IMG/VR virus record: IMGVR_UViG_3300027759_000075
Coordinates: 1-64,000 of that record
Direction: 5' to 3' (one strand)
DNA: 64,000 nucleotides
From: a virus
Shown here: positions 24,454 through 26,692 of the stretch, piece by piece
Numbering within the stretch: the first letter of the stretch is position 1
How the letters are laid out: the number at the start of each line of letters is the position of its first letter
Position numbers and translations under genes: made by a program
The notes under the pieces: model-generated
What the model was told of the DNA's origin: nothing
What the model saw: the letters and a program-made list of their open reading frames with translations, nothing else
Database searches by the model: none

Positions 24454-24526
24454 TGTTTTCTCCTTTAATTAAACGAAGTGACATATAGTGTGGACCCGAC
24501 CATCGGCATCCACACTATTATTTATA
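24454..24526 (-). promoter_or_regulatory. TATAAATA late promoter plus structured leader, copy A
   Basis: 10-bp outer stem enclosing UG-CCGA..UCGG-G; SD AAAGGAG. Confidence 0.75.
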
Positions 24527-24550
24527 ACAGATTTTTACATATCTGTCAAG

Positions 24551-26188
24551 TTACATCATACCGCCCATACCACCCATACCGCCCATTTGTGGCTGACCAG
24601 CAGATTCTTTTTGCGGAACTTGTGCAATAGAACAGTCTGTGGTCAGAATCAAACCAGCAATACTTGCGGCATTGACTAGTGCTGTCTTGGTAACTTTAGT
24701 AGGATCAATAACACCTTGTTCTACCATGTCACCATAAGTGCCAGTTGCAGCATTGTAACCATAGTTACCGGTCTTACTGGCGATTTCATTGATGATTACA
24801 TCTGCTGGATCACCAGCGTTAAATGCAATACAACGTGCTGGCTCTTCTAAAGAACGCAATACAATACTAATACCAGCCTGTTGATCGGCATTTGCACCTT
24901 GCAAACCACTGATAGCTTGTTTGGCACGGATCAAGGCTACACCACCACCAGCAACAATACCATCTTCAACAGCGGCGCGAGTAGCATGAAGTGCATCATC
25001 AATGCGATCCTTCTTCTCTTTCATTTCTGTTTCGGTTGCAGCACCTACACGAATAACAGCAACACCGCCGGCAAGTTTGGCCACACGTTCTTGTAACTTT
25101 TCTTTGTCGTAGTCGCTAGTGGCTTCCTTGACTTGTGTACGAATTGCTTTAACACGGTTTTCAATTGCTGTTTTGTTGCCGGCACCGTCAATGATAATGG
25201 TATTTTCTTTGCCAACTTCAACTCTAGCAGCCATGCCCAAATGTTCAACCGTGGCTTTTTCAAGTGTAAGGCCAGTTTCTTCAGCAATGACTTGTCCACC
25301 AGTCAAGATTGCAATATCTTCCAACATGGCTTTACGACGATCGCCAAAGCCTGGAGCCTTAACGGCACAAGTCTTTAGTATACCACGCATGTTATTAACC
25401 ACCAAGGTAGCCAATGCTTCGCTTTCTACATCTTCAGCAATGATCAACAAGGGCTTGCCAGCTTTGTTAACTGCTTCAAGAATTGGAATCAAGTCACGAA
25501 TGTTTGAGACTTTTTTATCAACCAACAAAATAAATGGACTTTCTAGTACAGATACTTGTTTGTCTGGATTGTTAATAAAGTATGGGGAGAGGTATCCTCG
25601 GTCAAACTGCATGCCTTCTACTACATCTAATTCGTTTTCAAGACCTTTGCCATCTTCAACAGTGATAACACCTTCTTTGCCTACACGTTCCATTGCTTCA
25701 GCAATAATGTTGCCAATGTTTGCATCACTATTGGCACTGATGCTACCAACTTGAGCAATTTCTTTGGTAGTAGTGCATGGCTTTGAAATACGAGTTAGTT
25801 CTGCTACTGCGGCAGTGACTGCTTGATCAATACCACGCTTGAGATCCATTGGGTTATGGCCTGAAACCACATACTTCATGCCTTCTTTCACAATGCTTTG
25901 TGCCAAAACTGTGGCTGTGGTTGTGCCATCACCAGCGTTGTCGGCTGTGCGGCTGGCCACTTCCTTGACCATCTGTGCGCCCATATTGGCCAGTTTATCT
26001 TCTAGCTCGATTTCCTTGGCTACAGTTACTCCGTCCTTGGTCACATGAGGACCACCAAAGCTGCGTTCAATTACCACATTACGACCTTTAGGTCCAAGAG
26101 TAACTTTAACTGCGTCAGCTAATACATTAACGCCTTCTACTAATTTGTTGCGACCATTGTCGCCAAATACAATTTGTTTTGCTGTCAT
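24551..26188 (-). CDS. groEL: Chaperonin GroEL
   Basis: [21 protein letters not shown] tail. Confidence 0.99.
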
Positions 26189-26197
26189 AATTTTTCC

Positions 26198-26485
26198 TTA
26201 TTCTACAATTGCCATTACGTCATCTTCTTTGAGGATGAGGTATTCTTCACTATCGACCTTGATTGTTTGTCCAGCGTGTTTGCTAAACAACACACGGTCA
26301 CCAATTTTTACATCCATTGGTACTACTGTACCATCTTCAGTAACACGGCCTCCACCAGCAGCTAATACTTCACCTTGGCTGGGTTTTTCTGTTGCTGCAT
26401 CCGGAATAATAATTCCAGATTTAGTAGCAGTTTCGGCTTCCAATACTCGAATTACAATACGGTCCTTGATAGGTTTTAAATTCAT
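26198..26485 (-). CDS. groES: Co-chaperonin GroES
   Basis: [19 protein letters not shown]. Confidence 0.98.
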
Positions 26486-26527
26486 TCTGACTCCTTTTAA
26501 ATGTAAATGATATTACCACAACACTAA

Positions 26528-26556
26528 ATTATAACACAGGCAATGAGTTGTGTCAA
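26528..26556 (-). promoter_or_regulatory. Consensus sigma70 promoter of groESL
   Basis: TTGACA-N17-TATAAT. Confidence 0.88.
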
Positions 26557-26596
26557 CAACTATGTTGTTAATTAGATAGATTTTGGGAGTATGACG

Positions 26597-26692
26597 CTAG
26601 GTCACGTAGGTGTGCTTTGACATATGATTTCTCCTTAAAAATAAGCAAGTAATAATGTAGACCCCACCCGGGCATCTACAATTTTATTTATA
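26597..26692 (-). promoter_or_regulatory. TATAAATA late promoter plus structured leader, copy B, with mini-ORF MSKHTYVT*
   Basis: Same hairpin core as copy A; SD TAAGGAGA; ORF 26623-26597. Confidence 0.65.

Follow-up and report, generated by a model that had tools for sequence, protein, structure and literature searches.

A 64,000-nucleotide (nt) stretch of viral DNA (positions 1 to 64,000 of IMG/VR record IMGVR_UViG_3300027759_000075; hereafter the window) carries two related leader sequences, copy A directly before hsp20, a gene for an IbpA-like small heat-shock protein (sHSP), and copy B upstream of the chaperonin genes groES and groEL. We think it probable that both are copies of one short two-hairpin leader for translational control of the ROSE type, each joined to a strong promoter, with copy A gating hsp20 and copy B its duplicate. 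To judge from sequence, leaders of this kind in phages have the design of ROSE thermometers and are a below-threshold relative of the Rfam family ROSE_3. The duplication had been proposed in an earlier sequence-only reading of the window and was borne out: the leaders and the three chaperone genes all lie on the minus strand, and the two repeat units are direct repeats of about 125 nt on either side of groES-groEL (Table 1).

ROSE_3 (RF02523), which comprises the short ROSE-like thermometers of Pseudomonas ibpA (Krajewski, Nagel and Narberhaus 2013, PMC3669281), matched both copies over its full length (model positions 1-69 of 69), with 34.6 bits (E 6.4e-7) for copy B and 27.8 bits (E 3.4e-5) for copy A when searched against the whole 74-kb contig. 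Both copies contain the two hairpins of the model, the GAUGCC...GGGUC apex and the bulged G of hairpin I. The consensus of hairpin I in ROSE_3 is GAUGCCGAAgUCGGGUC, and the GAUGCC/GGGUC core that the sequence-only reading had described as invariant is, by alignment, the known conserved apex of this hairpin. It is indeed invariant between copies A and B, but not across the wider family, which has UAGUGCC, AAUCGCC, GGUCGCC and GUAUGCC in its place and retains the bulged G and the CC/GG pairs. The pattern GATGCC-N(2-14)-GGGTC occurs twice in the 64 kb against 0.17 expected, and 2 of 100 shuffles reach two occurrences. The Pseudomonas ibpA leader (L253; sequences compared are given L numbers throughout) served as a positive control and scored 69.2 bits on ROSE_3. 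It was also matched by R1, a covariance model that we built from 91 phage leaders with the structure specified by hand (36 bits, E 2e-8, positions 1-78 of 78), so that the likeness holds in both directions. The Rfam search suggested by the sequence-only reading thus gave a divided answer: nothing in the window at gathering thresholds, and ROSE_3 at full length only in E-value mode. None of the 15 phage loci with the best leaders had a ROSE_3 match at the gathering threshold either, and these sub-threshold scores explain why routine annotation misses the phage leaders. ROSE (RF00435) and ROSE_2 had no match in the window at E up to 10. A match to the freshwater-2 RNA (18.9 bits against a cut-off of 49.9), which covers the Shine-Dalgarno (SD) region only, was rejected.

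The leader recurs before chaperone genes of many phages. Each of the 16 viral loci retrieved by way of Hsp20 has it, and a DNA pattern scan of IMG/VR yielded at least 120 loci. R1 found 140 leaders in 137 sources (136 viral loci fetched plus the window) and 11 further leaders among 65 loci gathered through GroES homology alone; the viral loci fetched hold at least about 150 copies. The genes downstream of the 140 leaders encode IbpA-like sHSPs in about 115 cases and DnaK in about 13, and in seven GroES-derived loci the leader sits directly on groES. Common gene orders are leader-dnaK-leader-hsp20 and leader-groES-groEL-leader-hsp20, usually with clpS next. Cultured phages in which R1 places the leader before hsp20 are Methylophilales phage Melnitz (56.8 bits), Sinorhizobium phage Phosso (39.1), Synechococcus phage S-PM2 (37.8) and Pelagibacter phage HTVC008M (26.8). 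The genes for the nearest bacterial sHSPs (from Parvibaculum, Hyphomicrobiales and Alcanivorax, at most 49% identical) are without a full leader and gave weak or hairpin-II-only matches, and they pointed to no donor or host.

Evidence that the element acts as RNA comes from the pattern of substitutions. Among 101 distinct leaders, 93% of cells are paired, against 82% in shuffled alignments and 40-59% when the partners are slid, and 10 of 16 pairs have changes on both sides (178 cells against 55 in shuffles). Nine distinct leaders from the set gathered by GroES homology, which is independent of the DNA pattern, gave a similar picture (94% paired against 82.5% shuffled and 46-60% slid; double changes in seven pairs). 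The covarying, ROSE-type RNA element postulated in the sequence-only reading is upheld by these double changes in homologues together with the ROSE_3 match, as is its observation that copy B has UUGCU opposite the SD sequence. The pair just below the bulged G (17-55) is U.G in 94 of the 101 leaders and C-G in the other 7, and the outer stem of copy B relatives has G.U in place of G-C; with such pairs the fold exists only in sense-strand RNA, which argues against a DNA operator. RNAalifold run on a raw MAFFT alignment of the 91 leaders recovered only two pairs because differences in loop length misaligned the stems, and that alignment was replaced by the covariance-model alignment.

Copy A has the setting expected of a ROSE-like element, the 5' untranslated region (UTR) of an sHSP gene: it ends at the ATG (24453) of a protein with a Pfam HSP20 domain, with the SD sequence AAAGGAG at 24466-24460. 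The leader has a folding energy of -25.2 kcal/mol and a z score of -4.7. In the ViennaRNA minimum free energy (MFE) fold, hairpin II has the four lower pairs CUUC/GGAG only, and the ROSE_3 alignment places non-canonical pairs there with low posterior; the bulged G opposite the SD sequence appears in the secondary-structure model of copy B and in copy A by hand-pairing only. The 5-bp outer helix of copy A is predicted to enclose both the SD hairpin and the start codon. Hairpin III, within the hsp20 coding sequence, is kept in the close clade, with a compensatory UGGAU/AUCCA change in L008 and L056, and is absent from distant hsp20 genes. Copy A most likely gates the translation of hsp20.

Two further observations concern the starts of leader-bearing genes. 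An exact GUCAU lies just 5' of hairpin II in 18 of the 83 leaders whose gene starts with AUGAC (for example L020, L029, L081, L101 and L103), a linker position from which it might base-pair with the start codon. Leaders of genes with any other start sequence lack a corresponding complement, and the feature may belong to one clade. In every leader-bearing dnaK gene (L012, L013, L040, L083, L090, L094, L111, L118), the first 35 nt contain a hairpin of 5-7 bp, GGUAU(C/U)-N6-GGUACC, at about +15 to +32, formed from the codons for IGIDLGT (-4.8 to -9 kcal/mol); hairpin III of hsp20 is about equally far from its start codon. Codons 2-3 of dnaK (AGC AAA) are complementary to the anti-SD sequence UUGCU.

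Table 1. Positions of leader features and genes, numbered in the window.
Feature	Position	Strand	Description and basis
Repeat unit A	24421..24549	-	Direct repeat: promoter, leader and first ~33 nt of coding sequence; repeat alignment
Copy A -35	24544..24549	-	TTGACA, 17-nt spacer to TATAAA
Copy A extended -10	24519..24529	-	TGT-TATAAATA; also reads as T4-type late motif TATAAATA
Copy A hairpin I	24485..24518	-	11-bp outer stem, innermost pair U.G; bulged G24507; CCGA/UCGG; loop UGG; fold, ROSE_3 alignment, covariation
Copy A outer helix	24448..24483	-	UGUCA (24483-24479) with UGACA (24452-24448); MFE and partition-function folds
Copy A hairpin II	24460..24478	-	CUUC-G(bulge, 24474)-UUU / AAA-GGAG; pairing read from sequence by hand
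Hairpin III	24421..24434	-	UGGAC-CUCA-GUCCA in hsp20 codons 7-11, from +20 relative to A of ATG
Repeat unit B	26591..26715	-	Direct repeat; repeat alignment
Copy B -35	26710..26715	-	TTGACA, inside upstream 74-aa open reading frame (last codons)
Copy B extended -10	26685..26695	-	TGT-TATAAATA
Copy B hairpin I	26656..26680	-	UGUAGAU-G(bulge)-CCC-GGGU-GGG-GUCUACA; fold and ROSE_3 alignment
Copy B hairpin II	26631..26649	-	CUU-G(bulge, 26646)-CUUA / UAAG-GAG; canonical ROSE anti-SD UUGCU opposite AAGGAG
Stub reading frame	26597..26623	-	MSKHTYVT + stop, 8 codons; ATG 26623, stop 26599-26597
Stub-stop hairpin	26591..26605	-	GUGAC-CUAGC-GUCAU, stop codon in loop; +20 offset, as hairpin III of copy A
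groES sigma70 promoter	26528..26556	-	TTGACA-17-TATAAT with TG; 12/12 matches
hsp20	24007..24453	-	148 aa, IbpA-like sHSP; Pfam HSP20, E 9e-16
groEL	24551..26188	-	545 aa; blastn matches to annotated chaperonin genes; N-terminus read
groES	26198..26485	-	95 aa; Pfam Cpn10, E 4e-33
clpS	23638-23988		Pfam
Ribosomal protein S21	26925-27146		Pfam
clpX	27143-28336		Pfam
Bax1-I/YccA-like membrane protein	30444-31118		Pfam
clpP	6901-7491		More distant in window; Pfam

The sequence-only reading had taken both copies for chaperone leaders, which holds for copy A on hsp20 but not for copy B, where only an open reading frame (ORF) of 8 codons, the stub, lies downstream. Since groES has its own promoter and leader 130 nt further on, copy B cannot directly gate groES translation. 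That promoter lies about 40 nt past the stub stop and is followed by a separate 45-nt leader before the groES start (26485). Hairpin I of copy B is kept in relatives, with G.U and compensatory changes. The stub reads MSKHT[FY]LT or MQICDHLT in relatives with 8 codons and extends to 14 codons in L077 and 33 in L145. Over its first 36 nt, the stub is similar to the 5' ends of leader-bearing hsp20 (empirical p 0-0.06) and dnaK genes (p 0-0.29) and unlike those of groES (p about 0.3-0.5). A 14-nt block around the stub stop, CTGACCTAGCGTCA, is identical in L004, L005, L007 and L188, and in the window a G replaces its first C; the first 18 nt of the stub diverge between L188 and the others. The 222-nt leader from copy B to groES has no unusual stability (z -0.2), and an alignment fold with four relatives found no covariation in it outside hairpin I. 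Copy B is likely a duplicated module that now serves mainly as an upstream promoter with a 5' hairpin. The groES leader itself (26486-26510, minus strand) could form a weak hairpin, UCAUU-UAC-AUUU-AAAAG-GAGU-CAG-AAUGA, which pairs part of the SD sequence with a U run and also pairs the start codon; its sequence is identical in four relatives, and its stability is not above that of shuffles (z +0.6).

Predicted stabilities of hairpin II fall from -5.5 (A) and -6.3 (B) kcal/mol at 10 °C to -1.7 and -2.4 kcal/mol at 37 °C. On going from 4 to 45 °C, the predicted exposure increases from 0.06 to 0.32 for the AUG of copy A and from 0.01 to 0.30 for the SD sequence of copy B. We treat such folding-based temperature predictions as weak evidence. 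In Pseudomonas ibpA thermometers, structure probing and reporter assays found that hairpin I is stable, that hairpin II melts and that hairpin II alone suffices (PMC3669281). In the scheme we infer here for the start of transcription, the occlusion of the SD sequence in vivo, the temperature response and the read-through from copy B, transcription would start a few bases past TATAAATA and the mRNA would begin at about the foot of hairpin I, a stable stem that probably shields the 5' end and aids the folding of the weak structure downstream. Hairpin II would pair the SD with the anti-SD sequence, leaving the bulged G, and copy A would add its outer helix over the start codon. These structures would keep off the 30S subunit at low temperature; on warming, hairpin II would melt and hsp20 would be translated. 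As a possible second route, an RNA-binding Hsp20 might be drawn off the leader by titration. Copy B would gate the stub only, and its likely residual role would be that of a promoter and 5' hairpin reading through into groES-groEL. The two repeats would mark where a chaperone cassette ends, and recombination between them would have added or removed it in relatives.

Several observations weigh against a ROSE-type leader as the explanation. Both copies score below the curated gathering threshold of ROSE_3 (43 bits), and the fold of copy B is no more stable than shuffles (z -1.0). Copy A does not have the literal ROSE anti-SD motif U(U/C)GCU but the variant UUCGU, with the bulged G one position further 3' in the hand-pairing; L005, L006 and L007 share this variant, and UUGCU is found at this place in the close relative L004. 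The SD exposure predicted for copy A is nearly flat (0.54 to 0.45 over 4-45 °C); this does not settle the matter, since the non-canonical pairs of ROSE elements are outside the energy model. Part of the 101-leader alignment was gathered with a pattern fixing GATGCC, GGGTC and CTTGCTT. Hairpin II has almost no double compensatory changes, its variation being mostly one-sided because the SD sequence is fixed, and the support for it, as far as the aligned sequences go, is conservation of design, not covariation. The promoters in the window read TTGACA-17-TATAAA(TA), not the sigma32 type found before Pseudomonas ibpA. The phage comes from lake water, where heat shock may be rare, and our literature search found no experiment on any phage copy of the leader.

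The lake habitat would also suit a different role, in which the leader is mainly a putative protein-binding operator: phage Hsp20 would repress translation until titrated by misfolded proteins, for example during capsid assembly, so that aggregation would be sensed rather than temperature and all leader-bearing genes would be co-regulated, with thermosensing still compatible. E. coli IbpA does repress translation of ibpA, ibpB and rpoH through structured 5' UTRs, requires its IX(I/V) motif for this and is titrated by aggregates (PMC10410725), and the C-terminal I142-A143-I144 of phage Hsp20 is invariant in the five phage proteins compared. The same leader stands on hsp20, dnaK and groES in phages, and from Pseudomonas to phages hairpin I keeps more than pairing would need, namely its bulged G, its U.G pair and its CC/GG apex. 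However, the IXI motif is general to sHSPs, hairpin II alone thermoregulates in Pseudomonas (PMC3669281), and E. coli IbpA has no action on dnaK and groES 5' UTRs (PMC10410725), so we hold this role to be possible but doubtful. We give slightly less credence to a wider version in which the leader is the operator of a phage proteostasis regulon, where the IbpA-like Hsp20 would bind hairpins I and II of hsp20, dnaK and groES mRNAs and, drawn off by misfolded proteins as virions assemble, would sense folding load rather than temperature, and the repeats of about 125 nt would double as homology arms for cassette swapping (groESL here, dnaK in L012 and L013, nothing in L008 and L009). The low stability of hairpin II at 37 °C and the flat SD exposure predicted for copy A would fit a plainer function, a 5' hairpin that only stabilizes the mRNA in front of an ordinary ribosome-binding site for constitutive high expression, and 5' stem-loops are known to stabilize mRNAs (discussed in PMC3669281). 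This appears improbable to us: in the pattern-free GroES-derived set, hairpin II keeps its CUUGCUU, its bulged G and the C-G pairs beside it (98% of cells paired), the design is that of a proven Pseudomonas thermometer, and nearest-neighbour energy models miss the non-canonical G pairs of ROSE elements. Least credible is an inverted repeat acting in DNA as the operator of a transcriptional repressor, as in CIRCE/HrcA or HAIR/HspR. The site does lie just downstream of a chaperone-gene promoter, and the outer stems of both window copies are perfect inverted repeats; but with its U.G pair and a bulged G on one side only the element is asymmetric and strand-specific, unlike the symmetric CIRCE/HrcA site, relatives have G.U for G-C, stem sequences vary freely while pairing is kept, and Pfam found no HrcA- or HspR-like protein among nine neighbouring ORFs (22850-32301) and hsp20. 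The leader sequence is also unlike the CIRCE consensus.

For copy B alone, the question is whether it still regulates groESL. A temperature-gated short ORF could alter the fate of the transcript from the upstream promoter, through protection from Rho or RNase E or through a remodelled downstream leader, and would so provide a second regulated input to groESL. The order leader, short ORF, sigma70 promoter, groES recurs in the window, L004, L007, L188, L077 (= L144) and L145, across GroES identities from 83% to 66%, and such copies have high R1 scores (53-63 bits). The stub has 8 codons in four lineages, its stop-codon block is conserved where its first 18 nt diverge, and its peptide is unconserved, as expected of a regulatory upstream ORF. 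Against this, the SD sequence is lost in L005 (AAGGAG to ATGGAT) and weak in L145, whose leader scores 33.7 bits; the ORF has 8, 14 or 33 codons; the full-leader and alignment folds show no conserved long-range structure between the stub and the groES SD sequence; and groES has a perfect promoter of its own. A working regulator at copy B is possible, but we would not expect it.

The repeats also mark a point at which close relatives differ. By blastn, L008 and L009 share the gene order of the window on both flanks (clpX-S21-ORF and hsp20-clpS) and, at 69-76%, are about as similar to it as L004 and L007 (76-78%). Even so, both are without the 2.07 kb with groESL that separates the repeats, and their single hybrid leader aligns to copy A as well as to copy B. 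In L008, this hybrid has the copy B promoter and outer stem joined to the copy A apex and downstream part. A contig that joins 24514 to 26685 with five extra letters, equal to the L008-like form, occurs in a freshwater metagenome in which the phage is also present; it probably comes from a relative rather than from the exact window genome. L012 and L013 have dnaK in the groESL slot. The absence of groESL in L008 and L009 and the presence of dnaK in L012 and L013 indicate that the leader repeats bracket an exchangeable chaperone cassette. As the more distant L077 and L044 also have groESL in this slot, loss in L008 and L009 by recombination between the repeats is the likelier direction.

Promoter sequences bear on when the leaders are transcribed. 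The shared TGTTATAAATA, which the sequence-only reading had counted as part of the leader, is extended -10 promoter DNA and lies outside the RNA, and the late expression proposed there remains conjectural: a perfect -35 TTGACA accompanies TATAAATA, and TATAAATA is not enriched in the contig (4 on the coding strand against 3.9 expected). Both window copies combine this -35 with a 17-nt spacer, a TG extension and TATAAA(TA), so that host sigma70 could use the promoters at any time. T4-type late promoters have TATAAATA at about -10, no -35 element and a phage late sigma factor. The leader family at large looks as if driven by promoters of this type: of 136 distinct upstream contexts, 71 contain (T/n)ATAAATA 8-11 nt 5' of the GCC core in hairpin I, and a -35 within one mismatch of TTGACA is present in only 18 of the 74 leaders with that -10 motif. 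This fits the Kyanoviridae relatives (HTVC008M, Melnitz, S-PM2, T4-like). The window copies differ from T4-type promoters in their perfect -35 and TG extension and in the lack of TATAAATA enrichment. In L023, L055, L064, L065, L085 and L132, a sigma32-like promoter (TTGAAA, 14 nt, CCCTATAT) replaces TATAAATA before the leader, which suggests that different phages plug the leader into different transcription programmes.

The source contig is a linear record of 74 kb with 41% G+C and an estimated completeness of 22% of the genome, from a freshwater metagenome, with nearly all genes on one strand. Judged by gene content, the chaperone and leader locus is part of a proteostasis island (Table 1), in which a 581-aa ORF adjoining clpX (28339-30084) had no Pfam match. 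In Sinorhizobium phage Phosso (L143, 469 kb), hsp20 lies near clpS, and in Pelagibacter phage HTVC008M (L140), hsp20 adjoins S21 in the order S21, small ORF, hsp20, as in the window; parts of the gene order of the island are thus common to very different large phages. A lake-water metatranscriptome contained two exact 151-nt contigs, 25885-26035 in groEL and 26357-26507 in groES with 22 nt of its leader. Cover ends at 26507, and since these are contigs only, at depth 2 (DNA carry-over being possible), the missing cover is uninformative on the copy B promoter. A second, different promoter-leader cassette is also repeated on the minus strand (3910, 36267 and 36600 in the window; 66205 and 66395 of the contig, beyond it), with the layout TTGACC/T, a 17-nt spacer AAAATGCCCAATTTGY, TATAAT, AGTTGTATAGTTAATAA..AAGGAGC and a start codon. 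Its 4-5 copies precede unrelated genes, and it looks like an early sigma70 promoter family with a common leader.

If this interpretation is right, a bacterial-type ROSE leader would be a standard part of phage chaperone genes, including those of cultured phages of Methylophilales, Pelagibacter, Synechococcus and Sinorhizobium. This would imply that large phages control their own chaperones at translation with one common element, and not simply by infection stage, an idea directly testable in existing phage-host pairs. The family would also be a set of natural AU-rich ROSE variants, which may be tuned to cool water. In the window, leader repeats also flank a chaperone cassette by which close relatives from one lake sample differ, and a leader may survive as a promoter-plus-hairpin module after the loss of its own gene.

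A full-text literature search, with most subscription journals outside its scope, found no paper on ROSE-like leaders of phage genes. RNA thermometers are on record for no more than a handful of phages: lambda cIII, SPbeta blyA and a gut-phage sigma70 gene with a fourU element. By the count of a 2024 paper (the Robo-Therm paper, PMC11182007), which itself contributes a further case, blyA was only the second to be found in any phage genome. These are likewise temperature-sensitive mRNA structures encoded by phages, but none is ROSE-like or sits on a chaperone gene, and each is a single case, unlike the family described here. The enterobacterial ibpA/ibpB leaders (ROSE_2; PMC10410725) resemble the phage leaders in that a structured sHSP leader occludes the SD sequence; the enterobacterial sHSP can repress through it, and phage Hsp20 shares the IX(I/V) motif. 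The enterobacterial leaders differ in having three to four hairpins, and their model does not match the window. The likeness to ROSE_3 of Pseudomonas is more detailed. In both, a 5' UTR of about 60 nt with two hairpins precedes an ibpA-type sHSP gene, a stable hairpin I at the 5' end carries GAUGCC...GGGUC, a U.G pair and a bulged G, and hairpin II pairs the SD sequence with UUGCU around a bulged G flanked by C-G pairs. The phage leaders differ in lying on phage genomes, in being AU-rich and scoring below the family threshold, in having a sigma70-consensus or TATAAATA promoter instead of a sigma32 promoter, and in also serving dnaK and groES; copy A differs further in its UUCGU, with the bulge shifted by one, and in its predicted pairing of the start codon, which is unpaired in Pseudomonas (PMC3669281).

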